Shown here piece by piece: positions 1 to 51,104 of a DNA stretch of 64,000 nt. Position 1 is the stretch's first letter; each line of letters starts with the position of its first letter. This stretch comes from an uncultured Gammaproteobacteria bacterium. Its GTDB lineage: Bacteria > Pseudomonadota > Gammaproteobacteria > DSM-16500. The DNA lies in the NCBI GenBank assembly GCA_963719645.1, contig CAVRCT010000001.1, positions 509,644 through 573,643 on the forward strand. The letters are read 5' to 3'. Position numbers and translations under genes: made by a program. A model generated the notes under the pieces. It saw only the letters and a program-made list of their open reading frames with translations, was not told the DNA's origin and did no database searches.

Positions 1-1250
1 AGCATAAATGGCAGCATTTTATGTATATCCATTATCATTGGATTAATATAAAAAAAACTATAAAAAATTAAGAACAGAGAGGCAGGTGCAATGGCTTCAA
101 TCAGCCAAAGCATGGTTTCTAATTTAAATGATTTTTCGAAATAGACCTTAGCCTTTAACAAATGATAAAGCCATCTGCGATGCATACTATATGCTACATT
201 AGAAGATCTAATTTTTTCTATCTGCATTAACGATTCATTTAAAAAAGAAATAGTTTTACTTTGTTGTGAAAAATAAGCATTTATTTGCTTCGCATTTCTA
301 GCCAGTGAAAATAATTTTATTATGAAAATAATGATATAAATTGTGAAATAAATAAAAGCAAGCAACAAACTGCAATATGCCATATAGACAAGCAAAAATA
401 TAAACGATAGCACGCCACAAACCACCATCAATACCGTTGCAAAAATGACTGACAAAGAAGCCTCATAGTCAGTAAGACGCTGAACAAAATCACTCGATGT
501 AAATTTCTTAACTGCACCAAAAGGCAGACGCAACATATAACTCCATGCAGATGGCAAAACAACGGCTAAGACTCTGATACTCAGTACTTTTAAATATAAA
601 TCACTTAGATAACAGACTAGAGAAGAGCCAACTACCGCCATTAAAGAAATCAAAAATAAAATAAAATTGTGACCCTCCTTTAAATCATGAACATGATTAA
701 AAATATAACCCGAGATCAGTGAAATCAGAAGCACTGAGAGTGACGATAAAAAACCAAGCCCGAAAGAAACAAGAAATCCTTTCTTAAAAAAACGAAAAAC
801 AAAAATAAGTAAACTTGATAAATTAACTGCAAAAAGTGAATGAGCTGGATAACATTGCCACGCCCCACTCAATTCATGACTACTGATACGTTCAGAATAG
901 TGTTCAAACTGTTTCAGCTTGGGATTATATAAATTCAGTCTGCCAAATTGATTAGGAATAAGAACTTTATATTGATCTGATCCCTTAAATTTCAATATTA
1001 TTGGATGCAAGAGTTTAGCAAATATATTTTCAAAGGATAACAATACTGGTTCAAAGATTAATCCAAATAACTCTTTACTTGAATTATCAAGATTAATAGT
1101 CAGTTTCTCTCTAGCAACTTCGTTCCAATCAATAGATACCTTTTGTTGCATCGCAACAAATTTAATGCAATTAATTAAGTCGCAATTCAAATGAGAAGAA
1201 CGAGCGACTTTGTCAAATGCCTGCTGGAAAAATGATGCTGTTAATCGCAT
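1..1250 (-). CDS. ABC exporter subunit, partial (runs off window start); second transporter of the RiPP export module
   Basis: Own minus-strand translation. ATG at 1250 overlaps the stop of the upstream PCAT gene (ATGCGATTAA). The frame stays open to base 1: MRLTASFFQQAFDKVARS...MQQKVSIDWNEVAREKL..., then long hydrophobic helices (LLIFVFRFF, LSVLLISLISGYIF, FILFLISLMAVVGSSLV, VLMVVCGVLSFIFLLVYMAYCSLLLAFIYFTIYIIIF) as in ABC-exporter TMDs. Not in the ORF track because it is edge-truncated. Confidence 0.6.
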   Translation of the reverse strand, partial: MRLTASFFQQAFDKVARSSHLNCDLINCIKFVAMQQKVSIDWNEVAREKLTINLDNSSKELFGLIFEPVLLSFENIFAKLLHPIILKFKGSDQYKVLIPNQFGRLNLYNPKLKQFEHYSERISSHELSGAWQCYPAHSLFAVNLSSLLIFVFRFFKKGFLVSFGLGFLSSLSVLLISLISGYIFNHVHDLKEGHNFILFLISLMAVVGSSLVCYLSDLYLKVLSIRVLAVVLPSAWSYMLRLPFGAVKKFTSSDFVQRLTDYEASLSVIFATVLMVVCGVLSFIFLLVYMAYCSLLLAFIYFTIYIIIFIIKLFSLARNAKQINAYFSQQSKTISFLNESLMQIEKIRSSNVAYSMHRRWLYHLLKAKVYFEKSFKLETMLWLIEAIAPASLFLIFYSFFYINPMIMDIHKMLPFM

Positions 1251-3445
1251 AGCATTGAATCACGCAATGTCGCTTCATTTGCAACTAAAGAATAATAATA
1301 ACTTTGATTCTCTATCAACTCTTGATGCTTTCCTTGTTCGACAATGCTACCCTTGTTTAAAACATAAATTTGATCGCAATGTTGAATCGTTGAGAGGCGA
1401 TGTGCAACAAATATTATTGTCTTATTGTTTTTACGTAAATTCTTTATGATAGCTTGTTCTGTATTTTCATCCATTGCAGATGTTGCCTCGTCAAGAATTA
1501 GTATCGGTGTATCCTGGATCAGTGCTCTTGCAAGATCAATCCTTTGCTTCTCACCACCACTAAAGTTACGTCCTTCTTCATCAACGACACCGCTCAACTT
1601 TCTATTTGCAATTAACTCTGATAAACAAGCATCGCTGATCGATTGCTCAAGAAGCACTTGGCTAGCATTCTCATTTGAAAACAGTAAATTTTGCAAAATT
1701 GTACCTGAAAAAAGTGAAACATCCTGAGAGACATAGGCATATAACGTTGCAAGTTCATCGGCGGAGTGATTTGATAATAGATTTTTATTAAATAAAATTT
1801 CTCCTTCGGTCGGGGGATAAAAACCACAAATTAATTTAGCAAGTGTTGATTTTCCCGATCCCGTTCCACCAACCAATGCAACATGATCACCTCGACTAAT
1901 TTTTAAATTAATATCGTTCAATACAGGTGATGAATTTTTATTATAATAAAATGTGACCTGAGAAAGAGAAATTATTTCCTTTTCATTAGCAGCAAATTTT
2001 TTTATGACTTGTTTAGGCGTAAAACGGGGATCTTTGTCATAAGATAAAATATCGTCAAGCCTCGTATTATTCGCATATACCGCTTGAGAATCTTGTAATC
2101 CTTGAAATATCCGAGATATGCCATTTTGGAAAATCAACAGTAATGAGTAATATCCCATTAAATTACCGAGCGACAGTGAACCGCAAGCAACTTGATAAGC
2201 GCCCAAATAGACGATAGAGAGTGACGAAACCTGATTTTGCATTCTTCTTAGCGACAGCGCTGTAATTGCAAGGAAATCGTCATTACCTTGGACACGCATT
2301 TTATTGAAAAATAATGTTCTCCATTTTTTAAAAATGGACTCTTCTAAGCCGCACGCTTTGATTGTTTCAATGTTTCGAATACTTGAAATACTGTGAGAAT
2401 ACAATTTACCGACTAGGTGTGCATTTGATTTTTCAGAGGAGGATTTTATTCTTGAGAGGTAAACAAACAGGATGAGTGAAATAACGGTCAGCAAAAGTGA
2501 TAGCAATGACAATACCCAGTCAATTTCTATCATGAATATGAAACAGACCGTGGATGTGATCATTCCAAGCATCAATACCAGTGCATTCTCAAAAATTAGA
2601 TTGGTCACAAACTCGGCTCTATTCAACACTGAAACAATTTCGCTGCGTTGACGCAATGAAAAAAATAGCATTGGCAATTGAAAAATATGGCTTAAAATTT
2701 CTGATATCTTTTTTAAGGAGGCTTTCGAATGTAATTTGAACTGAATTCTCTTATAAATAAACGTTAGAAATATGAGAATAGTCGATGTTAAGAATGTTAG
2801 AAAAATAATATCTGGAATCAGGTTGTTATTTTTTGCAAGGATACCTTGATCGATAAATATCTTAAACAAGACTGAACTTAAATAGGGAATAGTGCCAATC
2901 AACGACAATAGTAACAGTAGATAACATAATTCTGAATGAAAACCTGAAAACCATTTTTGGATGAATTTTAGCAATGAGAAGGTTTTTTTGCTGACAGTGA
3001 TGTGCTGCGTTGGTGTTATTTCAAGGATAACACCTGTAAATGCCTTGTCGAACGCAGCCATTGTGATTATCATTTCGCCATGAGCTGGATCATTGATTGA
3101 AACTTTATTTGCTTTGATGTTGTTGATGACAACATAATGATTGAAGTTCCAATACGCTATTACTGGAAGTGAGAATTCATTGAGACCATCGATATCAACT
3201 TTGTATGCTTCTGCGTTAAATCCATAGTGTTTAGCAACCGTTAAAAGTGTTTGTGCTTTGCATCCATCTCGTGAAACACCGCATTTTTCGCGTAATTTCT
3301 CTATGGAGAGATTCATTTTGTGATGGGCAAACACCATTGCGAGAGACGCTATGCCGCATTCTGTATCGGAAAATTGTAGAATGACTGGGACTTTCGTTTT
3401 CCAGACGAGGAATAAATTTTTTATTTTTAGGATTATTTTTTGCAT
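1241..3445 (-). CDS. Peptidase-C39 domain ABC transporter (PCAT; leader-cleaving bacteriocin/RiPP exporter)
   Basis: 734-aa ORF. N-terminal C39 signature QFSDTECGIASLAMVFAHH (catalytic Cys), multi-helix TMD, Walker A GGTGSGKST, ABC signature FSGGEKQR, Walker B ILILDEATS. Confidence 0.9.
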   Translation of the reverse strand: MQKIILKIKNLFLVWKTKVPVILQFSDTECGIASLAMVFAHHKMNLSIEKLREKCGVSRDGCKAQTLLTVAKHYGFNAEAYKVDIDGLNEFSLPVIAYWNFNHYVVINNIKANKVSINDPAHGEMIITMAAFDKAFTGVILEITPTQHITVSKKTFSLLKFIQKWFSGFHSELCYLLLLLSLIGTIPYLSSVLFKIFIDQGILAKNNNLIPDIIFLTFLTSTILIFLTFIYKRIQFKLHSKASLKKISEILSHIFQLPMLFFSLRQRSEIVSVLNRAEFVTNLIFENALVLMLGMITSTVCFIFMIEIDWVLSLLSLLLTVISLILFVYLSRIKSSSEKSNAHLVGKLYSHSISSIRNIETIKACGLEESIFKKWRTLFFNKMRVQGNDDFLAITALSLRRMQNQVSSLSIVYLGAYQVACGSLSLGNLMGYYSLLLIFQNGISRIFQGLQDSQAVYANNTRLDDILSYDKDPRFTPKQVIKKFAANEKEIISLSQVTFYYNKNSSPVLNDINLKISRGDHVALVGGTGSGKSTLAKLICGFYPPTEGEILFNKNLLSNHSADELATLYAYVSQDVSLFSGTILQNLLFSNENASQVLLEQSISDACLSELIANRKLSGVVDEEGRNFSGGEKQRIDLARALIQDTPILILDEATSAMDENTEQAIIKNLRKNNKTIIFVAHRLSTIQHCDQIYVLNKGSIVEQGKHQELIENQSYYYSLVANEATLRDSMLCD

Positions 3446-3501
3446 TGGATAGTGAACTCCGATAAGGCTTTATCTCTCTGCTCCTTCTCACTCCGTAAGC
3501 G

Positions 3502-3530
3502 TCAAGCTAAGCAAAATTTCCTTAGCTTGA
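3502..3530. repeat. Short hairpin repeat (family D: TCAAGCTAAG-N9-CTTAGCTTGA)
   Basis: Perfect 10-bp inverted arms just upstream of the PCAT start. Related copies or half copies at 12921-12949 and 13347-13367. Confidence 0.7.
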
Positions 3531-3655
3531 TGTCCATGGCGAGGAGAGGAAGTTGATGGATGAAGTTCTTTTAAAACGCTTAAGAAAGCGCATCATCCTG
3601 AGCGCTCCAACTCCCGAAAAAGAGGGGGCAGCATTGAATAAGAACTTCTTCTTTT

Positions 3656-4031
3656 TATACAAATCCCCCTTGCTCCCCCTTTTTCAAAGTGGGAGACCTT
3701 CTAAACAGCTTTCACTGTTAAAACACAGAGCTGTTTAGAAGGTCTCCCACTTTGAAAAAGGGGGAACAAGGGGCAATGGCACTAGCTTAAGAACTGTTGT
3801 CCCGGAATTTAGTAGCTCTTAACGAGCGCCTTTTGCTCGTTTAGAGCTACTTAATGTCCGGGATCCATCTTCAATTTATCGCCCTCTTGCTTTTAACTTA
3901 TATGCTTTAAGCAAAATGGATCCCGGACATTAACTGGCGCTAAATTCGCAAAAAGCGCTCATTAAGCGCCAGTAAATTCCGGGACGACAGTTCTTAAGCT
4001 AGTGCCATTGGGAACAAGGGGGATTTGTATA
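3656..4031. repeat. ~375-bp composite nested palindrome (family A units plus an embedded 90-bp hairpin)
   Basis: Outer arms TATACAAATCCCCCTTGCTCC (3656-3676) / GGAACAAGGGGGATTTGTATA (4011-4031). Inner hairpin 3675-3764 (CCCCCTTTTTCAAAGTGGGAGACCTTCTAAACAGC ... inverse). Then CAATGGCACTAGCTTAAGAACTGTTGTCCCGGAATTT...GGGATCCAT // ATGGATCCC...AAATTCCGGGACGACAGTTCTTAAGCTAGTGCCATTG. It sits between the HlyD-like and PCAT genes. Confidence 0.85.
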
Positions 4032-4131
4032 AAAAAAATAAATTTTTCTCTGTAGATACCCATGAAGGTGATTACAAAAAATCAAGAAACTCATTATGCG
4101 TCAGCACAAAAAGCGCATCCTTGACACGAGA

Positions 4132-4980
4132 CTAGCGCTGAGCCATCAATCGCGCTGGCGAACTTTTTTTATAAATTATCTTAGCAGACACCATGGTCCC
4201 CGGCTCAATGCGATAAGACGAACCACGCTTTGTAGTCCATGCTAGCCCACTGTCCGTCGATTTATCTCTTTGTAAACGAATTTTGACAACAAAAGGAGCG
4301 CCTCCCATAAAAAAATCATCCACTAAATTCATATTGCCCAGATACGAATAGACCAATTGTTTTGAAATCGGATACGCAGAAATACTAATCACTTTTCCGA
4401 CAATGTATCCATGCGCATACTGTGATATGTCATTAGATAATACATAAGCGTTCATCCCCACTACTATCTTTTTTCCATGCGTACGATCTGCAAAAACTAA
4501 CGCGTCTAATTGCGTGTTTGAACTATTCATCTCAGTGTTTGATAACAAATTTGTTAAAGGAGAATAAGCATTTCCATTCGGACTAGATAATTCTTCTTTA
4601 GCGGCAATAAGCTCAGATTTTGTTTTTAGTAAGTCCTCTAGCGTGACATAATGATTCTCAAACATTTTCTTCTTCTTATTGTATAAGTCTTCTAACAAAA
4701 CAATTTTTTCATTACGATCTTTCAACGCTTGACTAAAAAGAGTTTCAACTGCAATTAATTTTTCTTCCGGCAGAATCATGCCATTTGTATCAACACTCAA
4801 TGTAATCGTTCCAAACAATCCCCACAGCAAAATACAAACGAGTATTAACGCCGCAAAAATCATCCAGAGCCACTCGCTGGGATTAATCACTTGGAGTGCT
4901 GGGTATATTTCATCTAATGAGTTCAAATTATCAAGAGCATTTTGACGAAATAAATTATTATCAAAAGAAGATTTCAACAT
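4132..4980 (-). CDS. HlyD-family periplasmic adaptor / bacteriocin-system secretion protein (short form)
   Basis: 282-aa ORF. The N-terminus FRQNALDNLNSLDEIYPALQVINPSEWLWMIFAALILVCILLWGLFG (conserved R..AL..L.S.D.L motif plus a single TM anchor) resembles NHLM-type bacteriocin secretion proteins. A coiled-coil stretch and beta-barrel-like C-terminus follow. Located between the ATP-grasp and PCAT genes. Confidence 0.7.
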   Translation of the reverse strand: MLKSSFDNNLFRQNALDNLNSLDEIYPALQVINPSEWLWMIFAALILVCILLWGLFGTITLSVDTNGMILPEEKLIAVETLFSQALKDRNEKIVLLEDLYNKKKKMFENHYVTLEDLLKTKSELIAAKEELSSPNGNAYSPLTNLLSNTEMNSSNTQLDALVFADRTHGKKIVVGMNAYVLSNDISQYAHGYIVGKVISISAYPISKQLVYSYLGNMNLVDDFFMGGAPFVVKIRLQRDKSTDSGLAWTTKRGSSYRIEPGTMVSAKIIYKKSSPARLMAQR

Positions 4981-5003: not shown

Positions 5004-6086
5004 CTAAAAATTTTCAGGAATTTTATGGATACTTTCAGCGTGTTTTTTTATCACCATCATTTCCTTTTCAAAATCAAACAAAGATACACGTCGAGAATTT
5101 ATTTTTTCACAATGACCGCATCGGATCAAAAAATCAACGAAGCATTGAAGCATTTTAATTGTTGGGTTAACATCTTCAATCCACAAAAATTGACCTTGCT
5201 CGTTTATTTCTAAGAAATAATAGTCATCCTCTGGCGTAACAATAAAATCAAAACAGCCGAAAAGAATATTAAATTCACTCATCATTTTTTTACACAATCT
5301 ATCTAGCTTATCTGGAATAGTCACTCTTTCCAATGAAAGCTCTTTGGTCGGCGCAGATCGCCAATCTATTATTGCTTTCTCATGTTCTTGAGAATTAATT
5401 TTGACTGCAACATAATCATCACCAAAATAGGTAATTCTCAATTCATATTTTTTCGCTATTTTTTCTTGAAAAATGCCAGGAATACTTTGTAATATCGCAT
5501 CGCTTGGTAAATCAGACAGGGCTACTTGACTCGTATAACCCAACCGAGCTTCTTCTTTTTTTAGCCAAGCCATTGGATAAAGAGATTTATAGATCACATT
5601 TCCCGCGTGCATTTTAAGAAAGCGTTTAATGTCTTGGGGATTATTCGAGATGAGCGTTTTGGGAATTGTCATTCCAACGGCAGACGCTATTTTTAATTGG
5701 AGCAATTTTGAATTCACTCGCGTGACAGAATTGGGTGGATTGACCCAAACCGCATCCGGTTGGATCACTTGCCATAACGTTTGAAACAATATTCTATTTT
5801 CTTTTTTAGCATTCACTATATCGTCAGGATGCAAAATATCCGGCAATATTGGCTGTGCTGCTCTGCGATGCCAAACAATATCGTACTTTTTATCATGTCC
5901 GTCATAATCCACCCCTTTTAAATGCCATGAGATATTTTTACCCCTTATTTCGAATGAATGCGTTTGTTGCGATGGAAAATCTGCTGTATACCAAAGATCT
6001 GCTGCGTGACCCATTTTTTCAAGCGCTAATTTCACATAAATTGCGTGAGTGTCATCCGGTTTTGTTGGAATTAAAATTGTTAACAC
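5004..6086 (-). CDS. ATP-grasp ligase, microviridin MdnB/MdnC (MvdC/MvdD)-like RiPP macrocyclase
   Basis: 360-aa ORF. The N-terminus MLTILIPTKPDDTHAIYVKLALEKMGHAADLWYTADFP matches the characteristic start of MvdD/MdnC-family ATP-grasp enzymes (ILIVT...D.h...V...L...G......D.FP). Its size fits, and it lies immediately downstream of a small Thr/Asp-rich peptide ORF. Confidence 0.75.
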   Translation of the reverse strand: MLTILIPTKPDDTHAIYVKLALEKMGHAADLWYTADFPSQQTHSFEIRGKNISWHLKGVDYDGHDKKYDIVWHRRAAQPILPDILHPDDIVNAKKENRILFQTLWQVIQPDAVWVNPPNSVTRVNSKLLQLKIASAVGMTIPKTLISNNPQDIKRFLKMHAGNVIYKSLYPMAWLKKEEARLGYTSQVALSDLPSDAILQSIPGIFQEKIAKKYELRITYFGDDYVAVKINSQEHEKAIIDWRSAPTKELSLERVTIPDKLDRLCKKMMSEFNILFGCFDFIVTPEDDYYFLEINEQGQFLWIEDVNPTIKMLQCFVDFLIRCGHCEKINSRRVSLFDFEKEMMVIKKHAESIHKIPENF

Positions 6087-6115: not shown

Positions 6116-6138
6116 AACCCCTCTGATTCAGAGGGGTT
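6116..6138 (-). terminator. Stem-loop between precursor ORF and ATP-grasp gene (candidate attenuator/partial terminator)
   Basis: AACCCCTCTG-ATT-CAGAGGGGTT, a perfect 10-bp GC-rich stem 6 nt downstream of the precursor stop. On the minus strand it is followed by TTCGATCATTTT. Confidence 0.5.
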
Positions 6139-6143
6139 GATAC

Positions 6144-6305
6144 TTAAAAATCAACATTTACATCCATAGCCACATCTGATCCCCCTTGACGACCAAACGT
6201 TGTTGCGGTCGTCGCAACGGAGGTTCCACTGGCTGATACATTTTCAATTTCTGCCGCTGTTAATTTTTGGGATAGTTTGTGAGATAAGATTCTTTCATTT
6301 TTCAT
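6144..6305 (-). CDS. Candidate graspetide precursor peptide (53 aa), not in ORF track
   Basis: Own translation: MKNERILSHKLSQKLTAAEIENVSASGTSVATTATTFGRQGGSDVAMDVNVDF. ATG at 6305, TAA at 6144-6146. Leader spacing L-x3-E-I-x2-V-x-A-S mimics the double-glycine leader consensus. The core has a Thr/Ser-rich half followed by three Asp residues. Confidence 0.6.
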   Translation of the reverse strand: MKNERILSHKLSQKLTAAEIENVSASGTSVATTATTFGRQGGSDVAMDVNVDF

Positions 6306-6392
6306 AATTTACTCCGAAATTTTATTGATATTGTGCTTGTGACATGACAAGCAAAACCATTATCAGAAACTTCCTTTTTTAACACAATATAG

Positions 6393-6411
6393 TGGAAATA
6401 CAGTATTTCCA
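6393..6411. promoter_or_regulatory. 19-bp perfect palindrome upstream of the precursor ORF (candidate operator for the adjacent LuxR-type HTH protein)
   Basis: TGGAAATAC-A-GTATTTCCA, 9-bp arms around one central base, about 90 bp upstream of the precursor ATG and 26 bp downstream of the LuxR-type gene stop. Confidence 0.35.
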
Positions 6412-6436
6412 ATTTTGACAACATCATTTTTGACTG

Positions 6437-6640
6437 TTAATGGAGATTTATGATCCGCACTTTAAGCGCAATAAAAATAATATGCGCTGCATTTTTAGCG
6501 CCTAATTTTTTTCTAATGTTTGCCATATAGGTTTCAATTGTTCTGTGCTCAAGCCCTGTGATCCGCGCAATTTCTTTGGCCGTCAAACCACATGCGGTAT
6601 GTTTAATTATTTCAATTTCTCGACTGCTTAACTTTTGCAT
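6437..6640 (-). CDS. LuxR/GerE-family HTH protein (DNA-binding domain only)
   Basis: 67 aa: LSSREIEIIKHTACGLTAKEIARITGLEHRTIETYMANIRKKLGAKN is a textbook GerE/LuxR C-terminal HTH. Confidence 0.85.
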   Translation of the reverse strand: MQKLSSREIEIIKHTACGLTAKEIARITGLEHRTIETYMANIRKKLGAKNAAHIIFIALKVRIINLH

Positions 6641-7345: not shown

Positions 7346-10300
7346 ATGGATTCAAAACGGCAACCTTCCGTCAAACAAGAGAAGCCTACTTTTCTCAATA
7401 GCCCTGCAGGCAAACTGATTAAGACGCTGCTGGATGCGATTCATGTTGCGCAAAAAGAACTTGATAAAATAGCTCATCCAACACCGACAGAGAAACATGA
7501 ATTAAAAGAATTTCTTAAGTACCTAGAGGATACTGTTTCACGCGTTATTTCAATGTTGTCTCACTTTGATAATCAAAATATTCCCTGGTTATTGACCTTT
7601 GTCGATATTGTACTAGATGGATTTAAAATATATAAACAGTTCGATATAAAACGTCCTCTTTTTGAAGACAGCCGCATCATTGGACACCCGATCATTTCTC
7701 GCCTTGCCGCTGCAGTTTTACCAACAATAAAAGAATTTCCGCCCACTTTAAAAGAATTCATGCCTTTCTTAAATCCACAGGCTCTTCATGCTGTCGAAAG
7801 TGTATTAGATTATGATATGACAAAAAAAGCATTGGATCTTGATAACTCTCCTTCCTTTGAACAACATTCCGAGGGAATTACAAATACAGAAAGACCTTAT
7901 CGCTATCTCTTTTGTGAGAACGAAAACCTTCCTGATGAAATGCTTATCTTAGCGGTTGCAGAACCAACACCGGAAGTCATCGCTTCACTGAGAGGAGACG
8001 TTGAATTAATATCGATTTCGGATGTAGTCACTGAAGAAAATCTCGCCGAATTAGAATTCAAATCTAACGCCGCCTATGTGCGCTGCAAAATGTTTTTGAG
8101 CAATGACATAATAACAGAGCGGCTTTACTATATAGACCATCATTTTAAGACATATGCACTATTAGAAATGTCTCAGGAAGAACTGCAAGAACTCGATCAA
8201 GAATTAAAATTAGAAACAGACAGTCGAAAAAAATTAACTACCGATCAATTAAAAAAAATAATGACAGTAACGCCTTATCATCTCCGCAGTTTTGATTTAC
8301 CTTTCTTGCTCACTTGGGACAAAAAATTTTGGTTTTACGCCAACGGCAAAGAAGGAAAATGGTCATTCACAGCAGCGAATTCTGACGTATGTCAATGTTT
8401 ACCTTTTACGCCGGGGAAAATGGTATTTTTAAAAACTAAAAATTTACCTACAAAACTGCTAGTAGCCGTCACACCACCAAAAACCAAAACCCTCGATGAT
8501 GCAATGATGACTTCTATAAGAGGAAATTGCGAAATAGTGTGTCTGCCAAATATTGTGCGGGAAAGAGACGTTGAAAAATTAACATTCGAATCGAATGCCG
8601 CTTATATTCGTTGTAGAATGATTCTCAGCGATGAAAAAGCAGAAGAAACAGTTGTTACGGAACAACTCTATTATCGCGACAAACCACTTAAAACGTTTCA
8701 ACGGTTCCAAGACTTAGATGATGAAGCACTACACGCTTTCGATAAAGCGTTAGAACTCACGACCAAGACACGGCGAATTTTACTGCCTATCGATTTAAGA
8801 ATGATTGATAGAAGAACGCCCCCTCATGACAGAAGCGTTGACAACCATTGGCCGATATTGCTGAAACATGAGAAAGAATTCAGTCTCTATGAATACGATT
8901 CTAAAAGCCAGCGTGGTGAATTTACTCCAGTGAATGCCCTTGTTTGTAAAAAAATTAGTTTTCCTGCTGTCAATAAGATGGCAATGTTAGACTACACCGA
9001 CAGTCAATCGCCGCCGTTATTTCCTGTGTTTCAAGAAATTCATGCGAAAAAAATTCATAATTACGTTCCTATAATTATCGATGCAGATGCGCATTATGAA
9101 GGTTTTGGGCAAAGCCTGATGCATTATTTGCAAGATTTTCGTAGTATGAGCAACTCACCCCATCAAACTATTCTTGAGCAAATAAACACGTGGCTTAAAT
9201 CATTTATTAAACCCGATGATCAAGCAATCATTGAAGATGAATTCAAACAAATGCCAGATTTTATGCCACATAATTTGATGGTTGTGCCCAACGAATTTCA
9301 TTTAGATAAACATTTGTTATCCACTATCTCTTGCACCAGTTTTATTCGTCATCGTGATGGAATTTATTTATATGATTGTGACAGCCAGCGACTTCATGAG
9401 ATGAAGATGTCGGTTTCTCTGCAAGCTTTTGACGAACAATTTAAAACAAAAAACACTTCTCAACCGAATCCCATGATATCCATTACGCTTCCTTTGGATA
9501 AGCCATTAACATCGGAACTCCTTGAAAAATACTCCACCCTGGCTCCACCCTATAGGATTTATCCGATGAAGACTCAATTTACACAGGATTATAAATCCAT
9601 TGGAGATATTCCCGACTATAAAAAATTAGAAACTGCTGGACTACTCTCTTTTAAGAGTACTCCTTTTTATTTACGTTTTTTACTCGGAAAAGGAAAGAAA
9701 AAAGACACCCTCATCTACCGTGTTTTTTCTCGTCAAAAAGAACCTATCGAGGGAGAAATTTCACTAACGGATTTAAAACAGCAATTAAAAGAAAAATATT
9801 CGAATTTTGCGCCACTGTTGGCTAATTTTCCCATCCCAAATAAATCGATGCCTAATCAATTTAATCGCCAATTCTCGCCTTATTTAGCCGATTTTATTGA
9901 AATAGCTGCCAAGAGAGGTCATGTCTCTCCTCTGCAAAAACCTGTCATTGTACGACAAATCGATGAAGGCCCAGATCCTCACCCAGATTCGACCATCATT
10001 TCAGTCTTTGACTACTCTCCTGAAGAAAAAACATGGCGCGTCAAAAAGCTTGGTCTACACGAATTGCCCGAAAAAATGACAGCACCATCCTATCAAGGTC
10101 TATTTGTTTATGGTGTAGATGAAGCAGTTCGCCGAGAGATTGCACTTTGTGGTGCACACAGAGAAAACTTACCCTCATTAAAAGAAACAACACCCAATAT
10201 CGCCTATAGAAGACTTGCTGATAGCGAGATCAATGAATTGCAACAAATGATGCAGTTTTCAGCCAAAACAAATAAGCCGTTTGATCTCATTTATAGATGG

Positions 10301-11488
10301 TATGAAGCTTACCTTAACGTTTTTTCGCAAAACAACATCACTCTTCTTTATCAACCATTTTTGAAAAATCCACAGGGTTGGCTGGAGAAAGTAAAAAAAA
10401 TGAATCACTCTCAGCGCCAAGTTGAAATGAAAGCAGTTGCTGCGCCTGATGCACCTCTGCAAGCAACTATTACAAAAGGAAATGATGCAAAGGAAGAAGT
10501 CAAAGCAGCTCCTGCCTCTTCGTTACCTGCTGAAATTTTCCTAGCAGTACCGGCAACAGAGGCTGTAAACATACTGGATGCTAATATGGAAAAGAAGCAA
10601 GAAGCTACTCTATCGGAGAGTGCTTATGAACAATCTTCTGCATCCTATTGTACAGATGACGATGTGGATAAAATGTTTGCGGAAATCCATGCAGCGCTTG
10701 CTGAAGAACAGCGTTCACAAGAATCCCCATCTTCACAAACAGAAAAGGCGACTTCTTTAAGCAGCGACTTAACACCGTCTCTTCTTCCACAAGTGAGAAA
10801 AGAACTGAGTGAGGAAGACTTCACTCGGTTGATGAAAGAAAATGAAAACAGACCTACTCTTATAGAGACAACACCCCAAGAAGCTTCGTCACCCGCTCAA
10901 ATTGAATTAAACGAAGCGAAAAGAGGAGAAGAAAAAGCCTCTTCATCGAACGGCATTTCCGGCTCTTCTGCAACGTTAGTATTGAAAACCCCGCATTTCC
11001 CCAGCACGATGGGATTGTCAAAGCAATTAAATTTTAAGCAAGAGACAAACTTTCACGGCAAAAATTCGAATGGATTTTTTTCAGGCACGTTTGGTGGATT
11101 CTGCTGCGGATATGGATTGATTAGCTCTGTTGTCATTTATGCGCTGGCTTCTGCTGTAGCCAGCGCACTGACGTTGGGGATAGCGATAGGATTAATATTA
11201 TTTGGCACGGCTATTATCTTGACGCTTCGCGCACGACATCTGGAAAAAAGACCTTTAATCACGGCGAAATCTTCTTCGCCATCTTCTTTCACTCAAGGCA
11301 GATGTACTTCGAGAATGTGGCGCGCGCTTGGCTGCACGCGTCAACAACTTATGTGTGTCACTGCGCAAAGTGATGCAACTGTTGCAGAGCAGACTTCTCT
11401 TGCTAAAGATCGACAGGAAAATCTCCCTAGAGAAGAGATCAGAGAAGAAGCGTATTCATCTGCTAATTTTCGTCGAATAAAAACGTAG
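7346..11488 (+). CDS. Large orphan protein (1380 aa) with internal ~150-aa duplication, C-terminal bilobed hydrophobic domain and acidic tail; effector-like
   Basis: Long uninterrupted ORF. Repeat modules: residues ~200-330 (LILAVAEPTPEVIASLRGDVELISISDV...FKSNAAYVRCKMFLSND...ERLYYIDHHFKTY) and ~365-515 (LLVAVTPPKTKTL...IRGNCEIVCLPNIV...FESNAAYIRCRMILSDE...EQLYYRDKPLKTF). Hydrophobic FFSGTFGGFCCGYGLISSVVIYALASAVASALTLGIAIGLILFGTAIILTL. No family recognised. Confidence 0.75.
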   Translation: MDSKRQPSVKQEKPTFLNSPAGKLIKTLLDAIHVAQKELDKIAHPTPTEKHELKEFLKYLEDTVSRVISMLSHFDNQNIPWLLTFVDIVLDGFKIYKQFDIKRPLFEDSRIIGHPIISRLAAAVLPTIKEFPPTLKEFMPFLNPQALHAVESVLDYDMTKKALDLDNSPSFEQHSEGITNTERPYRYLFCENENLPDEMLILAVAEPTPEVIASLRGDVELISISDVVTEENLAELEFKSNAAYVRCKMFLSNDIITERLYYIDHHFKTYALLEMSQEELQELDQELKLETDSRKKLTTDQLKKIMTVTPYHLRSFDLPFLLTWDKKFWFYANGKEGKWSFTAANSDVCQCLPFTPGKMVFLKTKNLPTKLLVAVTPPKTKTLDDAMMTSIRGNCEIVCLPNIVRERDVEKLTFESNAAYIRCRMILSDEKAEETVVTEQLYYRDKPLKTFQRFQDLDDEALHAFDKALELTTKTRRILLPIDLRMIDRRTPPHDRSVDNHWPILLKHEKEFSLYEYDSKSQRGEFTPVNALVCKKISFPAVNKMAMLDYTDSQSPPLFPVFQEIHAKKIHNYVPIIIDADAHYEGFGQSLMHYLQDFRSMSNSPHQTILEQINTWLKSFIKPDDQAIIEDEFKQMPDFMPHNLMVVPNEFHLDKHLLSTISCTSFIRHRDGIYLYDCDSQRLHEMKMSVSLQAFDEQFKTKNTSQPNPMISITLPLDKPLTSELLEKYSTLAPPYRIYPMKTQFTQDYKSIGDIPDYKKLETAGLLSFKSTPFYLRFLLGKGKKKDTLIYRVFSRQKEPIEGEISLTDLKQQLKEKYSNFAPLLANFPIPNKSMPNQFNRQFSPYLADFIEIAAKRGHVSPLQKPVIVRQIDEGPDPHPDSTIISVFDYSPEEKTWRVKKLGLHELPEKMTAPSYQGLFVYGVDEAVRREIALCGAHRENLPSLKETTPNIAYRRLADSEINELQQMMQFSAKTNKPFDLIYRWYEAYLNVFSQNNITLLYQPFLKNPQGWLEKVKKMNHSQRQVEMKAVAAPDAPLQATITKGNDAKEEVKAAPASSLPAEIFLAVPATEAVNILDANMEKKQEATLSESAYEQSSASYCTDDDVDKMFAEIHAALAEEQRSQESPSSQTEKATSLSSDLTPSLLPQVRKELSEEDFTRLMKENENRPTLIETTPQEASSPAQIELNEAKRGEEKASSSNGISGSSATLVLKTPHFPSTMGLSKQLNFKQETNFHGKNSNGFFSGTFGGFCCGYGLISSVVIYALASAVASALTLGIAIGLILFGTAIILTLRARHLEKRPLITAKSSSPSSFTQGRCTSRMWRALGCTRQQLMCVTAQSDATVAEQTSLAKDRQENLPREEIREEAYSSANFRRIKT

Positions 11489-11614: not shown

Positions 11615-12934
11615 ATGACATCATCATCTAATCAACGTCAAGCTATCACTGACGCCATCAATGAGCATATCCGCGAAACAATTACCTCGAGCGATCCCAA
11701 AATCACGCGATTAGCCGAACAAAAAGACCTTCAAAAAGGTGCTGTCAGATTTTGTTTTTTTGAATTTCATGATAATGAATGGTCGTTTCAGCTTGCTAAT
11801 GAATTAGTGAAAAAATTTGATATTGGTGTCATTGGGTTAGAGCATCCTATCCAGCGAACCGGCTATTTTGAACAAGATAATTATGGAGGCGATTTAGAAA
11901 CAGGCATAGATTATGATGCGCTTGATGACGAGAAAATGAGTGATGATGAAATAGAGCTCAACGTGGCATATTCACGTGCATTAACAACATTTGCTAAATC
12001 ACTTAAAAAAACAGCACCGCTTGTTTGCATAGATCTTGCGACGGAAGAGGAAGAGATACTCTGTAGCAAGCCTGCGATAAAAAGCTATATAACAGATACT
12101 GCTAAAAAATTGCCGCCCAATACTTATGATAAGTATGGTGCTGTCAGCATTCTCAGAGATTCATTGCGTAATCAATTTATGGCGCATACTATTTCTTATT
12201 TTACGTCGGCGCCGATGTCATTAACGATTACTGGCGCAGCTCATAAAAAAATTGTTGATGCATTATATGCGATTGAAAATAATGTGATTCCTATTCTCAT
12301 TAAATTTACCCTTTCAGAGTTAACGAATGCCATTGGCATTACTGTCGAAAATTACACTCCAGAAAAAAATGCAAATTTCTTACAAATAGTGTTGTCGGTA
12401 CCCGCTTTTGATGAATGCGATCCTCAACTTTTTAAAATGCTGATTGATGAGATAGCGAGTCCAATTACTCGATATCTTCAGCGGAGAAAAGAGGGAGTTC
12501 TTGAACCGGAAATCTCATTTCGCAAAATGATTTGCTTACCTGCACCTAAACCAAAAACATCTGGACATGCAGGAGATACAAAAAGTTCAGCAAGCTCATC
12601 GAGCTCTTCTTCAAGTTCTTCTTCGAGCTTTTCTTTGAACTCTTCTTTGAACTCTTCTTTGAGCTCTTCTTCGAGCTCTTCTTCAAGCGCGGCTCATGCA
12701 GCTTCAGATAATTCTGCAGCCCCAGGTGCTTCTTCTTCAGAAACATTGAAAATTGTATCAAAATCTACATTGCCTTTGGGCTTTGCTAAAAAACAAGAAA
12801 AATCTTCGAGTTCTTCAGAAGACGCATCAGATAATAAAAAAATATCTGGGCACAAGAGAAAAGAACATCCTGAAGCAGATCGAGATAATCAGAAACACAC
12901 TAAGCCCGGGTACAACCCATACGCGTCAAGCTAA
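11615..12934 (+). CDS. Orphan protein with C-terminal poly-serine low-complexity region
   Basis: 439-aa ORF with AGAGG RBS-like sequence upstream. SSASSSSSSSSSSSSFSLNSSLNSSLSSSSSSSSS tract encoded by imperfect tandem repeats (about 12590-12700). The last codons and stop lie inside the flanking palindromic repeat. Confidence 0.7.
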   Translation: MTSSSNQRQAITDAINEHIRETITSSDPKITRLAEQKDLQKGAVRFCFFEFHDNEWSFQLANELVKKFDIGVIGLEHPIQRTGYFEQDNYGGDLETGIDYDALDDEKMSDDEIELNVAYSRALTTFAKSLKKTAPLVCIDLATEEEEILCSKPAIKSYITDTAKKLPPNTYDKYGAVSILRDSLRNQFMAHTISYFTSAPMSLTITGAAHKKIVDALYAIENNVIPILIKFTLSELTNAIGITVENYTPEKNANFLQIVLSVPAFDECDPQLFKMLIDEIASPITRYLQRRKEGVLEPEISFRKMICLPAPKPKTSGHAGDTKSSASSSSSSSSSSSSFSLNSSLNSSLSSSSSSSSSAAHAASDNSAAPGASSSETLKIVSKSTLPLGFAKKQEKSSSSSEDASDNKKISGHKRKEHPEADRDNQKHTKPGYNPYASS

Positions 12935-13579: not shown

Positions 13580-15191
13580 ATGCCCAGTAAAAAACATCCC
13601 CGCGACGAGGAATTGAAAGATGGGAATGAGCTCCCCACTAAACGTACAAAACGAGCAACGTATCAAGGTTCTTATAAAGAAAACTCTGGTTCTGGTTCTG
13701 ATGTTGAGATGGATGATAGCGACAGTGAAGAAAAAAAAAGACGCTGTGACAACGCCTAAAAAAGTAAAAAGCAAAAAAAGAAAGAGGCATGCTTTCAGCA
13801 CAACTGCTTTAGAAACCCCCGCTCCGGGTTTTAAAGCAACACTCCACTCAGAAGCCGCGTGGCCTACTGAGGGTGAAAAAAATGAAACTATTATAAAATT
13901 AACGGTCGGAAGCTCCTTCGACAGAAACAAATATGACAAGGCACTTATTGCGGCTAGACAAGCATATATCGATGCCAATCAAGTACCGCCGTTACCGGAA
14001 ATTGAGGAAGAATATAAAACCGGAATTTACAAACTTGCAATTTTTAACACAAGAAATAATAAGTTCTGCAAATATTCTTTCGCCGATAGAAATCTGCTGG
14101 GCTATATTAGGGCCACTGTCAAAAGAAAGAATAGTAGTAACTTGTTTGAAGCGAAAGGTAAACCCACTGAGAAACTAAAAGCTAAAATTATGCAGTTATT
14201 GAAAGGAGAGGCGCTGGGTACTAAAAAAGGCTCGAAGAAAAAAGAATTGGCTGCAGAAGTTGACACATTGCAGGGAGAAGAAAAAGAACAATATTTGCGT
14301 GCAATTCGATTTGCTGAGGTATGGGTTAATGAATTTTCATCGTTAAGAAATGCCGGTAATGCGCCGAAGAAAAAATCTAAATCTAAATCTGACTTTGTTG
14401 CAAAAGATTCTACAACATTAAGTTCTTCTAGTTCTTCTAGTTCTTCTAGTTCTTCTAGTTCTTCTAGCTCTTCTAACTCTTCTAGCTCTTCATCAGGTAA
14501 ATTTGGGGGCAAAGTGTCGGCGCGCTCAAGCTACAAGACTAAATTCAACTCTCAACCTACCATTGGATTTGAAAATAACACGGATTCTGTTGCAGATGAC
14601 TCTGCTAGATTAAGCTCCTCTAATTCCTCATCGAGTTCTTCGTCGAGTATGACAGCAGCAGCGCAACATCAGAAACAATCTAACCAAAGCCCGTTCGATT
14701 ATTCAGACGGCGATACTGCAAATACCCCAAAAAGGTTCGGGTTTTTTAGTTCATCTAGCTCTTCTAGCTCTTCTAGTTCCTTATCTAACGCCATAGAGGA
14801 AGCTTTGCTGTTTGGAGAGATGGACTTTTACGAGGACAACACTAATAGTTCTTCGTCTAGTTCTTCGTCCATTGCGCCTCTTTTTCCATCTTCTCCGATA
14901 GATTCGTCTCATTCCTCGACAGCAGGCGTCATGCAAGCAATGTCAGCTAGTCCTGCTAGACCAGCACGCTCAAATAGTTTTTCTGATAATCCAGTTTATA
15001 ACTCACTCAGTTCAGCATATTCATCTCACCCAGGATACTGCTTTTCTGATTCATCTCCTTACCCAATCGAGCCAATCGAACAACCCGAACCAAAATGGGA
15101 AAGGAGTCTTAGCGGCAATTCAGCCAATAACGATGAAATGCTAGAAGATAGCAAAGATGCAAAAGTTGATAAGACTTTCAGACCGTACTAG
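13580..15191 (+). pseudogene. Ser-rich, basic-cluster (NLS-like) orphan protein split by a frameshift at an A9 tract (or phase-variable/slippage gene)
   Basis: ATG 13580 gives MPSKKHPRDEELKDGNELPTKRTKRATYQGSYKENSGSGSDVEMDDSDSEEKKRR, stopping at 13757-13759. After A9 (13731-13739) the track ORF frame (13620..15191) reads KKKKDAVTTPKKVKSKKRKRHAFS... An A8 tract would fuse both into one ~536-aa ORF. The first ~35 aa of the track ORF (MGMSSPLNVQNEQRIKVLIKKTLVLVLMLRWMIATV) look like out-of-frame reading. Confidence 0.55.
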
Positions 15192-15214: not shown

Positions 15215-15364
15215 CAATGGCACTCGCTTAAGAACTGTCGTCCCGGAATTTACTGGCGCTTAATGAGCGCCTTTTGCGAATTTAGCGCCAGTTAATATCC
15301 GGGATCCATTTTGCTTAAAGCACATAAGACGTAGGTTGGGTTAAGCGTCAGCGAAACCCAACAT
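15215..15364. repeat. Family A1 unit plus family E hairpin
   Basis: CAATGGCACTCGCTTAAGAACTGTCGTCCCGGAATTTACTGGCGCTTAATGAGCGCCTTTTGCGAATTTAGCGCCAGTTAATATCCGGGATCCATTTTGCTTAAAGCACATAAG, followed by GTTGGGTTAAGCGTCAGCGAAACCCAAC. Confidence 0.85.
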
Positions 15365-15532: not shown

Positions 15533-15850
15533 ATGAATACAATCTCCACCCCGCAAGAACTGGAGTTACAGCTAGGAGAACACATAAAAACCCTGCGCCT
15601 ACAGAAGAACATCAATCGACAAACACTCTGCTATCAAGCTGGGATTAGCGAAAATGCACTGAGACATCTTGAGGGAGGACAAGGAGCAACCATCAAGACA
15701 CTCGTGCGAGTGATTAAGGCACTGGGCCAAGAAAATTGGCTAGCCAGTTTAGCACCACGCGTCAGCATCAACCCTCTACACATGGTTCGAGAAAAACATC
15801 CCCGACAACGAGCAAGCAGAAGGTCGCATGAAAAAAACAAAGAAACCTGA
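15533..15850 (+). CDS. hipB: XRE-family HTH antitoxin, HipB-like
   Basis: 105 aa, AAGGAG RBS. HTH LGEHIKTLRLQKNINRQTLCYQAGISENALRHLEGGQGATIKTLVRVIKALG. Overlaps the hipA start by 23 nt. Confidence 0.8.
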   Translation: MNTISTPQELELQLGEHIKTLRLQKNINRQTLCYQAGISENALRHLEGGQGATIKTLVRVIKALGQENWLASLAPRVSINPLHMVREKHPRQRASRRSHEKNKET

Positions 15851-17141
15851 CCCCTATAAAAAAGTCGACCGAATTGAAGTTTTTCTTTGGGGAAAATTTG
15901 TGGGCGCCCTCGCCCTTGATCCAACATTAAATTACTACGTATTTGCCTACGATAAACAATTTGCTAAAAGCGGTATTGAACTTTCTCCTTTGCATATGCC
16001 ACTCAACGAAACAGAGCAACCCTATGTTTTTACCGATTTACCAGAAGCAACTTACAAACGACTGCCCGCGATGCTAGCCGATGCATTACCCGATGATTTT
16101 GGTAATGCAATCATCAATCGCTATATGGCAGAGAAAGGTATTTCTCTCACGCAAGTCACACAATTAGATCGACTGGCTTACATGAGCAAACGCGCGATGG
16201 GCGCACTTGAATTCAAGCCCGGACGCGGCCCCAAAACACAAAAACCCTCTGTTTTAAAGATGGGTAGTCTTGTAACTGAAGCAAGAAAAATGCTAACAGG
16301 AAATATCCAAGATGATGATCAAACTGACGCAGCCTTAAGAAGCATTATCGAAGTCGGAACATCAGCAGGCGGTGCACGCGCAAAAGCAGTCATTGCCTGG
16401 AATCCTGAGACAAAAGAAATACGCTCTGGGCAAGTCGACACAGAAGAAGGCTTTGAACATTGGCTGTTAAAATTTGACGGCATGGGAGTTGATCGGGAAC
16501 TGGGTTCAACCCAAGATTATGGACGAATCGAATATGCCTATTATTTGATGGCTATCGAAGCAGGCATCACCATGATGCCCTCCAGTTTGTTGATAGAAAA
16601 TGGCCGCGCACATTTCATGACGAAGCGATTTGACCGCGAAAAATCGACGATTAAACATCATATTCAAACTTTGTGCGCGCTAAATCATTTGGACTACAAA
16701 AAAAAATCCACCCATAGTTATGAACAATTATTTATGACGATTCATCAATTATCACTCGGCCACGCAACCCATGTTGAAGCATTTCGGCGCATGGTCTTTA
16801 ATGTGATGGCACGAAATTGCGATGACCACACGAAAAATTTTTCTTTCCTCTTACAACAAGGGGGGCATTGGCAATTCGCACCGGCTTACGATGTAACGTT
16901 TGCGCACAATCCGAATGGAGAATGGACAAGTCAGCATTTAATGTCAGCAAATGGAAAATTTAAAAATTTTACCCTGAATGATATGCTAACAGTTGCAGAT
17001 CGTTTCGGTGTGGGTGAAGCACTGCCTGTCATAGCAAACATAAAAAAAATTATTCAAGCATGGCCTATTTTTGCTAAAAAAGCTGGCGTGACGCAAAAAG
17101 AAATAAACCGTATTGGAAAATTGCATCTTATATTGAAATAA
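15828..17141 (+). CDS. hipA: HipA-family serine/threonine kinase toxin (type II TA)
   Basis: 437 aa. N-terminal coupling domain (IEVFLWGKFVGALALD), LDRLAYMSKRAMGALEF, GTSAGGARAKAV, catalytic NCDDHTKNFSFLL. Confidence 0.93.
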   Translation: MKKTKKPDPYKKVDRIEVFLWGKFVGALALDPTLNYYVFAYDKQFAKSGIELSPLHMPLNETEQPYVFTDLPEATYKRLPAMLADALPDDFGNAIINRYMAEKGISLTQVTQLDRLAYMSKRAMGALEFKPGRGPKTQKPSVLKMGSLVTEARKMLTGNIQDDDQTDAALRSIIEVGTSAGGARAKAVIAWNPETKEIRSGQVDTEEGFEHWLLKFDGMGVDRELGSTQDYGRIEYAYYLMAIEAGITMMPSSLLIENGRAHFMTKRFDREKSTIKHHIQTLCALNHLDYKKKSTHSYEQLFMTIHQLSLGHATHVEAFRRMVFNVMARNCDDHTKNFSFLLQQGGHWQFAPAYDVTFAHNPNGEWTSQHLMSANGKFKNFTLNDMLTVADRFGVGEALPVIANIKKIIQAWPIFAKKAGVTQKEINRIGKLHLILK

Positions 17142-25327: not shown

Positions 25328-25447
25328 GTCTAAAAAGCCCTACGGCTCCAGCTTAAAAGTAGGCTGTCGTCCCGGAATTTACTGGCGCTTAATGAGCGCA
25401 TTTTGCGAATTTAGCGCCAGTTAATGTCCGGGATCCATTTTGCTTAG
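25311..25447. repeat. Family A1 unit with extended left flank
   Basis: CATATCGTTACCCACAAGTCTAAAAAGCCCTACGGCTCCAGCTTAAAAGTAGGCTGTCGTCCCGGAATTTACTGGCGCTTAATGAGCGCATTTTGCGAATTTAGCGCCAGTTAATGTCCGGGATCCATTTTGCTTAG. The same flank occurs at both ends of the 27344-27651 composite. Confidence 0.85.
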
Positions 25448-50995: not shown

Positions 50996-51104
50996 TACAA
51001 CTATTTCAGTATGGTGTATTTTTACCAAAACCCTATAGCAGTGTCAAGCGCCCTCTTGCTTCTTAACTTATGTGCTTTAAGCAACATGGATCCCGGCCAA
51101 TCAA

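Follow-up and report, generated by a model that had tools for sequence, protein, structure and literature searches.

Introduction

Among described graspetides, the closest counterpart of the system considered here is Gra-7 of Legionella pneumophila, which was refactored with its two precursors, MRKQTQKDRTLAYKTANLITNEDLLKISGGANPGCNTTRYTTKQTFDTHGNWDVGADIEWD and MKQYNRILAYKKSIELSLEHLLEISGGSSKATVNRTQKLTNVYPSGNDFEFDQVWD, by Ayikpoe et al. (2022; PMC9576775). When Gra-7A and Gra-7B were each co-expressed with one ATP-grasp enzyme, three waters were lost, and cleavage with LahT150 placed the modifications of Gra-7A in its core (PMC9576775). Gra-7 (synthetase WP_106184356.1) belongs to graspetide group 8 according to both this work and Carter et al. 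(2026; PMC13097080 supplement). The group comprises 230 biosynthetic gene clusters, 43% of which contain TIGR03796 and 39% HlyD (PMC13097080 supplement), and Legionella precursors of the same type were also listed by Makarova et al. (2022). Here we describe a 53-residue peptide encoded at positions 6144-6305 of a 64-kb stretch of DNA from an uncultured gammaproteobacterium (contig CAVRCT010000001.1; hereafter the window). An earlier note, made from the sequence alone, had taken this peptide for a graspetide precursor with several omega-ester rings and a leader of the kind processed by the C39 domain of a peptidase-containing ATP-binding cassette (ABC) transporter (PCAT). Our comparative evidence supports that assignment: judging from the family and its gene neighbourhood, it is highly probable that the peptide is a true graspetide precursor, which the neighbouring ATP-grasp modifies and the PCAT system processes and exports.

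Results

The precursor gene

The peptide is encoded on the minus strand, where 6144-6305 translates as MKNERILSHKLSQKLTAAEIENVSASGTSVATTATTFGRQGGSDVAMDVNVDF; the 53-residue translation of the earlier note was exact, and every residue number quoted there is correct. The gene and its parts are as follows.

6144 to 6305, minus strand: precursor peptide gene, 53 codons plus stop, ATG start; open reading frame (ORF) with translation and homologues
6228 to 6305, minus strand: leader region, residues 1-26, with the E4-R-I-L-S-H motif and L15/E19/I20/V23 followed by A25-S26
6147 to 6227, minus strand: core region, residues 27-53, GTSVATTATTFGRQGGSDVAMDVNVDF, with conserved triads
6312 to 6315, minus strand: Shine-Dalgarno-like GGAG, 6 nt 5′ of the ATG, read off the sequence

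The precursor ORF is a real gene under purifying selection. Four homologous peptides are 68-71% identical to it, and VSASGTSVAT, T36, G42, D44, D48 and D52 are invariant among these close homologues. Compared with the homologue at related locus L001 (L and P numbers are our handles for loci and proteins), 23 codon differences are synonymous and 15 non-synonymous, with 11 and 3, respectively, in the leader; codons 23-32 show nine synonymous changes and zero amino-acid changes. The exact 53-residue peptide is already a called, although unnamed, gene product in the NCBI, ENA and Logan collections, so that 'unannotated', as the ORF had been described, is true only of the gene track with its 60-aa cut-off, from which it is absent.

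A plus-strand reading of 6144-6305 was rejected, as stops occur throughout. A 41-aa ORF at 6302-6427, which overlaps the precursor start, is without family support and was treated as spurious.

Family survey and core motif

An alignment of ATP-grasp homologues, used as query against species-representative genomes, yielded 399 related loci, 79 of which were analysed; a contig scan with the single ATP-grasp sequence as query found no loci. The related loci are mostly from Legionellales (Legionella species, Coxiellaceae, Berkiella, Tatlockia), with some from Acidobacteriota. The genome of the window itself is absent from the representatives, the best match being 53-56% identical. A hidden Markov model (HMM) made from the leader part alone was then run on 7,715 small ORFs of the related loci. 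At E<1e-3 it retrieved 95 peptides, almost all of which are encoded immediately upstream of an ATP-grasp gene, and peptides of the precursor type adjoin ATP-grasp homologues across about 80 loci. The similar short ORFs beside ATP-grasp genes, which had been named as a test of the original assignment, were thus found in dozens of genomes. Within the window, 6144-6305 is the top and sole match of this leader-only HMM, and no second precursor was found with it.

Because the HMM was built on the leader only, the core motif is independent of the search. In a set of 100 family peptides (the 95 above plus P0002-P0004, Gra-7A and Gra-7B), 73 end in [DE]x3[DE]x3[DE] followed by 0-3 residues, and 62 carry this triad together with an upstream [TS]x3[TS]x3[TS], compared with 0.04 per 100 in shuffled cores. 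Likewise, when the window core was shuffled 2000 times, both triads were kept in none. The spacer between the triads has a modal length of 7, as in the window, and ranges from 1 to 14 in the family, with both triad spacings fixed. In a profile search over 1.84 billion representative proteins, the closer RILS(Y/H) subfamily was represented by 86 sequences, and both triads occur in 59 of these.

In the window core, the donors T28, T32 and T36 are followed by the loop FGRQGGS, the acceptors D44, D48 and D52, and a C-terminal F53. T28, T32, T36, G42, D44, D48 and D52 are invariant among close homologues; T33 and T35 vary there, and S29 and S43 are not conserved family-wide. On this pattern of conservation, the true motif is TxxxTxxxT-x7-DxxxDxxxD-x, and the 'TTxTT' originally read as the donor motif is incidental, because two of its threonines vary. 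Of the six Thr/Ser donors proposed with it, T28, T32 and T36 are conserved in the right spacing and the other three are not, while the three Asp acceptors were correctly recognized and belong to an Asp triad seen family-wide. As the core contains no Lys, it would form esters only, lactams being impossible.

The same pattern is present in both Gra-7 precursors (TTRYTTKQT...DVGADIEWD in Gra-7A, TVNRTQKLT...DFEFDQVWD in Gra-7B), near-copies of which occur in L077 and L080. The motif is therefore not new, as both the leader and the core pattern recur in Gra-7A and Gra-7B, and the view that it lies outside the described graspetide groups has to be given up: it occurs in triply dehydrated peptides of group 8. 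This core comparison was made against the Gra-7 sequences and later papers. As a proxy for the sequence similarity network criterion of group 8 (score 70), we compared the window ATP-grasp with that of L080, which lies beside Gra-7A/B-like precursors. The two are 42% identical at 278 bits, which by our own estimate corresponds to an alignment score of about 78. The co-occurrence feature of group 8 is seen in the window as TIGR03796 (7e-185) together with TIGR03794 (5e-36), and the general features of a graspetide precursor are present as a short ORF co-oriented with the ATP-grasp gene and as conserved Thr donors and Asp acceptors. Membership of the window peptide in group 8, or in a sister clade, is supported by proxy and not proven. 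Within these alignments, the only unusual feature of the precursor is Ala-Ser in the place of Gly-Gly, which is common to a mostly Ala-Ala subclade.

Two further precursor types were seen in the survey. Many Legionella loci contain a second subtype with the same leader, a core of roughly PT(I/V)xVTGxxxxPD... and no Asp triad (L021 7593-7757, L030 7720-7881, L053 7556-7714, L059 7626-7889, L045 7698-7928, and others); one synthetase may serve two core types at these loci. In the Acidobacteriota (Thermoanaerobaculia) loci L023, L026, L027, L035, L037, L038, L043, L044, L067 and L069, a different type is found: its leader follows RILGRRLARELTREELEKATG(G/S), and its short core reads ...CWTLTDPPDGPY(R/H)D(H/N). 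The ATP-grasps of these loci are 43-44% identical to that of the window, and the HEAT-like gene described below is lacking.

Leader and cleavage site

The leader aligns ungapped to about 95 related precursors and has a fixed length from E-R-I-L to a pair of small residues. A25-S26 lies in ungapped register with the Gly-Gly of Legionella peptides, Gra-7B included; in this respect the proposed replacement of Gly-Gly by Ala-Ser stands, although the exact scissile bond could lie after S26 or after G27. V23, I20, L15 and E19 fall at -4, -7, -12 and -8, the spacing pointed out in the earlier note, and the hydrophobic positions are conserved across the family as V/I, L/I and L/I/hydrophobic. LahT150 binds hydrophobic residues at -4, -7 and -12 of its substrates (PMC6363468). 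From these alignments, the conserved E4-R-I-L-S-H motif probably serves recognition by the ATP-grasp, and L15/E19/I20/V23 with A25-S26 probably constitute the C39 recognition and cleavage motif.

The -2/-1 pair varies in the family. Peptides of the genome loci have GG (65), AA (15), AG (4), GA (4), GS (3) or AS (2), and the 86 representatives of the closer subfamily have AA (42), GG (9), GA (8), AG (8), AS (7) or GS (4); the AS pair is also found in L082 and P0002-P0004. Different pairs are mixed inside single loci, AA with GG in L009 and L014, and AA with AG or GS in L007 and L017, so that one protease must accept AA, GG, AG and GS. The canonical double-glycine variants are GG, GA and GS (PMC6363468, PMC10885120), which makes a Gly-free pair atypical. 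By its sequence, the window leader with Ala25-Ser26 would work like a double-glycine leader, yet it is no strict member of this class, for which Gly-Gly, Gly-Ala or Gly-Ser is expected at -2/-1.

The nearest solved structure of the window C39 domain is LahT150 (6MPZ; E 9e-35, about 55% identity). Q24, C30, H103 and D119 of the window protein align with Q21, C27, H101 and D117 of LahT, and with this Gln/Cys/His/Asp set intact the domain is predicted to be catalytically competent. All 17 C39 domains of the clade (window 3350-3358, minus strand, PCAT residues 30-32; L001-L017, L082, L084) read C-G-[I/L/V/M]-A, compared with C-G-A-A in LahT150 and PCAT1. This may relate to the acceptance of Ala-Ala and Ala-Ser, a correlation that is confounded by phylogeny. 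When an enlargement of the S1/S2 pocket was sought by comparing C39 domain sequences, C-G-[ILVM]-A was the sole difference seen.

Operon and neighbouring genes

On the minus strand, the genes follow one another in the order LuxR/GerE-type helix-turn-helix (HTH) protein, precursor, ATP-grasp, short HlyD protein, a 686-bp ORF-free gap, C39-ABC transporter and second ABC subunit.

6437 to 6640, minus strand: small LuxR/GerE-type HTH protein, 67 aa (Pfam GerE, 7e-15)
6116 to 6138, minus strand: G+C-rich stem-loop of 10 bp, AACCCCUCUG/CAGAGGGGUU then UUUCGAUCAUUUU, a terminator-like match
5004 to 6086, minus strand: ATP-grasp graspetide synthetase, 360 aa, GTG start (NCBIfam matches, MdnC/MdnB structures)
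4132 to 4980, minus strand: short HlyD-type membrane fusion protein, 282 aa (TIGR03794 NHLM_micro_HlyD, 5e-36)
1241 to 3445, minus strand: PCAT, 734 aa (Peptidase_C39, ABC_membrane, ABC_tran; TIGR03796)
3005 to 3391, minus strand: C39 domain, PCAT residues ~19-147, with Q24, C30, H103 and D119 present
1 to 1244, minus strand: second ABC subunit without peptidase domain, NHLM ABC2-like, reading through the left edge of the window

This layout, from the LuxR-type HTH gene to the second ABC gene, is conserved in relatives; specifically, L001, L082, L084 and more than 13 further loci keep the GerE, precursor, ATP-grasp, HlyD and PCAT genes in synteny. In 13 related loci, and likewise in L082 and L084, a homologue of the GerE-type protein (48-73% identity) is encoded immediately upstream of the precursor; by its position, the GerE-type protein is a candidate regulator of the operon. 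The ATP-grasp gene starts on the same strand 57 nt beyond the precursor stop (6144 to 6086). Its product matches the TIGR04187, TIGR04185 and TIGR04184 models of maturases for peptides that are ribosomally synthesized and modified post-translationally (RiPPs) at E 1e-52 to 2e-53, its nearest solved structures are MdnC (5IG9; 3e-38) and MdnB (5IG8), and 794 homologues were found at E<=1e-10. The spacer between the precursor stop and the ATP-grasp start is occupied by the stem-loop at 6116-6138 (fold energy -18.8 kcal/mol, z = -2.1), and of 13 related loci, 12 have a strong hairpin of unrelated sequence in this spacer too. The hairpin probably acts as a partial terminator or a transcript-stabilizing element that sets the precursor:enzyme ratio.

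The PCAT matches Pfam Peptidase_C39 at 8e-41 and the NHLM-type model TIGR03796 at 7e-185. In a tblastn search of 1-1244 with the ABC2 protein of L082, the aligned residues 1-383 were 32% identical (E 1e-57), with no break in the frame; the ABC2 gene also lies 3′ of the PCAT gene in L082 and L084. The HlyD gene is present in the matching position in 15 related loci, and its best TIGR03794 stretch covers profile positions 266-414 of 421. As the protein has 282 aa and the profile 421 positions, a good deal of its central region is seemingly missing; its homologues in related loci are similarly short (241-282 aa).

In addition, 61 of the 79 related loci, in Legionella and Coxiellaceae-like clades alike, carry a gene of about 350 codons directly 3′ of the ATP-grasp gene. 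Its product is hydrophobic in an N-terminal segment and matches HEAT_2 weakly (E 8e-6 to 6e-5, under the cut-off), and it could possibly act as an immunity protein or an export accessory. Examples, with no counterpart in the window, are given in the coordinates of each locus.

7220 to 8293 of L001: HEAT-like accessory gene
8096 to 9178 of L082: HEAT-like accessory gene
8143 to 9192 of L084: HEAT-like accessory gene

The gap at 3446-4131 consists of nested palindromes (arms 3774-3871/3913-4010, 3666-3710/3729-3773 and 3640-3677/4010-4047) and has a GC content of 42.6%, compared with 37% in the operon. A 237-nt repeat unit recurs at 90-99% identity at 27365-27593, 15215-15328, 25364-25446 and 51049-51099, and the repeat looks like a miniature inverted-repeat transposable element (MITE) or a repetitive extragenic palindrome (REP)-like element inserted in the operon. 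A degraded gene was sought in the gap by tblastx against all related loci and rejected; none was detected, and the gap is repeat DNA.

Beside the cluster, at higher coordinates, lie three ORFs of 1380, 439 and 523 aa (7346-11488, 11615-12934 and 13620-15191, all plus strand), none of which matched a Pfam family. The 439-aa ORF holds long poly-Ser tracts. The three resemble orphan effector-like proteins typical of Legionellales, and in L001 a T4SS_Ceg14 effector gene is found on the equivalent side of the homologous locus. A HipA-family toxin kinase gene follows at 15828-17141 (plus strand; HipA_C 1e-48, Couple_hipA 1e-18).

Discussion

Proposed pathway

We propose that the host is a Legionellales-like bacterium and that the ORF encodes the GraA-type precursor of a group-8-type graspetide. 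The precursor would be translated from its own GGAG and ATG, and the hairpin behind its stop codon would probably keep precursor transcripts in excess over enzyme transcripts. By homology, the adjacent ATP-grasp ligase would bind the N-terminal leader motif (ERILSH...) and, with ATP, esterify the hydroxyls of T28, T32 and T36 to the carboxylates of D44, D48 and D52, giving three macrolactones and a loss of 54 Da. The predicted product is a beta-hairpin that turns at the Gly-rich FGRQGGS and carries the rings one within another, as the three rungs of a ladder (T36-D44, T32-D48, T28-D52). The LahT-like C39 domain would dock L15, I20 and V23 (-12, -7 and -4) and remove the leader after A25-S26, a Gly-free variant of the double-glycine site that retains Gly at P1′. 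Export of the resulting 27-residue tricyclic peptide, with a predicted [M+H]+ of 2650.22, would then fall to the PCAT together with the second ABC subunit and the short HlyD protein. Our best guess, by analogy, is that the mature peptide acts as a protease inhibitor or as another secreted effector or signal under LuxR-type control.

Alternative readings

Several points weigh against this pathway, and they are given here with the alternatives on which they bear. The case for the window peptide, and for the Ala-Ala and Ala-Ser members, is made from homology and comparison; moreover, the window ATP-grasp scores under the curated cut-offs of all three NCBIfam models and is on that account a divergent subfamily. 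The 53-aa peptide, which matches no Pfam or NCBIfam model, might be a chance ORF, or an unmodified bacteriocin or signal peptide of the double-glycine type that merely lies beside an ATP-grasp gene. We regard this as most improbable: the conservation and the pattern of synonymous and non-synonymous changes argue against a chance ORF, adjacency to ATP-grasp homologues is strict across about 80 loci, the Thr and Asp triads occur far above chance, and the homologous Gra-7 peptides are demonstrably modified (PMC9576775). The cluster could also be decaying here, the peptide perhaps being made by a system that is not fully functional. The HEAT-like gene was sought across the 64-kb window and no homologue was found, and the HlyD and PCAT genes are split by an inserted palindromic repeat that recurs at other places in the window; with the one lacking and the other inserted, expression or export could be impaired. 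Yet the five retained genes are intact in frame and catalytic motif, so that decay, while possible, is not indicated; the precursor is under purifying selection, and the genome may carry the accessory gene at another place. Ring formation probably does not require it, because the Gra-7 peptides were triply dehydrated without it, the ATP-grasp alone being sufficient (PMC9576775). Furthermore, in L081, which comes from a second public assembly, the LuxR-type gene, precursor and ATP-grasp are followed directly by HlyD with no accessory gene between, on a contig that ends 117 bases past the HlyD gene and short of the transporter gene. Overall, decay appears unlikely.

Within the proposed pathway, the scissile bond is uncertain (AS|G is favoured, SG|T possible), because Gly-free pairs nearly always precede a Gly. 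Specifically, 43 of 49 Gly-free -2/-1 pairs among the representatives and 15 of 17 among the locus peptides have Gly as the next residue; for pairs that contain a Gly, the counts are 13 of 29 and 17 of 76, respectively (Fisher p = 8e-5 and 6e-7, without correction for phylogeny). This suggests a need for one Gly at some position from P2 to P1′. The trend spans loci L002-L080 and proteins P0128-P0212. It would fit either a need for Gly at P1′ when P1 and P2 are bulkier, or a cut moved to after Ser-Gly. In the latter case, the same precursor would be cut one residue later, after S26-G27, to give a 26-mer that starts at T28, with a tri-lactone [M+H]+ of 2593.20. G27 is invariant in the close clade, and Gly always stands directly before TSVAT (SAGG-TSVAT in L011, SAAG-TSVAT in L084, SASG-TSVAT in the window). 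However, the later cut would bring S24, E21 and T16 to -4, -7 and -12, where LahT150-type proteases need hydrophobics; loci that mix GG and AA (L009, L014) hold the leader length constant up to the pair; AA-S variants without Gly at +1 exist (L007, L017); and a required P1′ Gly has precedent in MrsT/mersacidin (PMC10885120). With the hydrophobic register preserved, cleavage after S26 is the favoured and reasonably probable site, and the later cut is rather unlikely. As to the rings, yields of Gra-7 were too low for tandem mass spectrometry (PMC9576775), and group 8 is known by mass shifts. The esters might be offset or interlocked (e.g. T28-D44, T32-D48, T36-D52), or involve S29 or S43, and form a cage rather than a ladder; under the equal spacing of 4, not only i + j but also j - i (16) is constant, and interlocked tri-lactones are known among graspetides (rosaritide, microviridin-type cages; PMC13097080). 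The nested ladder is nevertheless the likeliest topology, because i + j = 80 for all pairs and both triads have a spacing of 4, which corresponds to one face of a beta-strand, and because the spacer is Gly-rich and turn-like. Loop variation of 1-14 at fixed triad spacings would be absorbed by a ladder in a single ring, but would alter all three rings of an offset arrangement, and S29 and S43 lack family-wide conservation. From the sequence pattern, we give the ladder somewhat better than even chances and consider an offset or cage-like arrangement a less probable, if serious, competitor.

Significance

Taken together, these results allow a joint reading that we put forward tentatively. A subclade of graspetide precursors from Legionellales/Coxiellaceae may present its LahT-like C39 protease, which is of the C-G-[ILVM]-A type, with an Ala-Ala or Ala-Ser pair that is free of Gly and is followed by a compensating, near-obligatory Gly at P1′. 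The product could be the first three-rung ester ladder on a beta-hairpin to be defined in group 8, which intracellular bacteria associated with amoebae would secrete. If cleavage truly occurs after Ala-Ser, Gly at -2 would be no requirement of this protease family. The Ala-Ser/Ala-Ala site with Gly at +1 is a natural test of the glycine strictness of LahT-like C39 domains, a property of practical relevance because LahT150 is widely used for leader removal. To a group known by mass shifts, the window peptide adds a clean, experimentally tractable member, whose topology should be easy to solve because it is short and Lys-free and has three Thr and three Asp placed symmetrically. The locus also documents a conserved, LuxR-linked and predictedly secreted RiPP system across Legionellales, which may act in microbial competition or in the interaction with amoebae or hosts. 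Current concepts are unchanged by it: it provides a solid annotation with a modest twist, and specialist follow-up interest is limited to the cleavage-site variant and the ring topology.

Comparison with known systems

The processing protease resembles LahT/LahT150 (PDB 6MPZ) in its Gln/Cys/His/Asp set, in its TIGR03796-type transporter, and in a substrate leader with hydrophobics at -4/-7/-12 and Glu at -8. It differs in that LahT substrates end in GG, GA or GS, whereas the window leader ends in AS and those of its clade mostly in AA; in addition, LahT acts on Nif11/NHLP-type substrates, and the window leader is short (26 aa) and not Nif11/NHLP-like.

Microviridins have a TxKxPSDx(E/D)(D/E) core motif and a PFFARFL leader (see also Makarova et al., 2022). 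As the products of group 1 (MdnA with MdnB/MdnC), they share with the window system a homologous ATP-grasp and, as predicted for the latter, a leader-guided side-chain macrolactonization from Thr/Ser to Asp/Glu. In contrast, the window peptide has neither that core nor that leader, its operon has one ATP-grasp and not two, a Lys-Glu lactam is impossible, and a hairpin ladder rather than a cage is predicted. The thuringinin/plesiocin-type omega-ester-containing peptides are ring-within-ring (hairpin) graspetides whose N-terminal arm bears the donors and whose C-terminal arm bears the acceptors. Ring-within-ring graspetides are recognized as a general class (PMC13097080). The window peptide differs from them in its motif and spacing (three rungs at i, i+4 and i+8 on both arms) and in its synthetase group, and its connectivity is a prediction; it resembles them in this placement of donors and acceptors and in its predicted nested macrolactones.

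The differences from Gra-7 are that Gly-Gly stands in Gra-7 where the window has Ala-Ser, that Gra-7 has two precursors and the window one, that the window ATP-grasp is only about 42% identical to a Gra-7-like one, and that the window C39 domain shares only 27-36% identity with those of the Legionella clade. Gra-7 cores also contain Lys, which makes a lactam possible, whereas the Lys-free window core would allow esters only. The likenesses extend over the whole precursor: the leader (N/E)R(I/V)L(A/S)(Y/H)K...(E/D)L..(I/V)S with its small-small pair has the same fixed length, and the core has TxxxTxxxT, a loop, DxxxDxxxD and one C-terminal residue. Both systems have a single ATP-grasp, both are from the order Legionellales, and an NHLM-type PCAT is associated with the group. 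The three dehydrations of Gra-7 equal the number of Asp acceptors in the window core.

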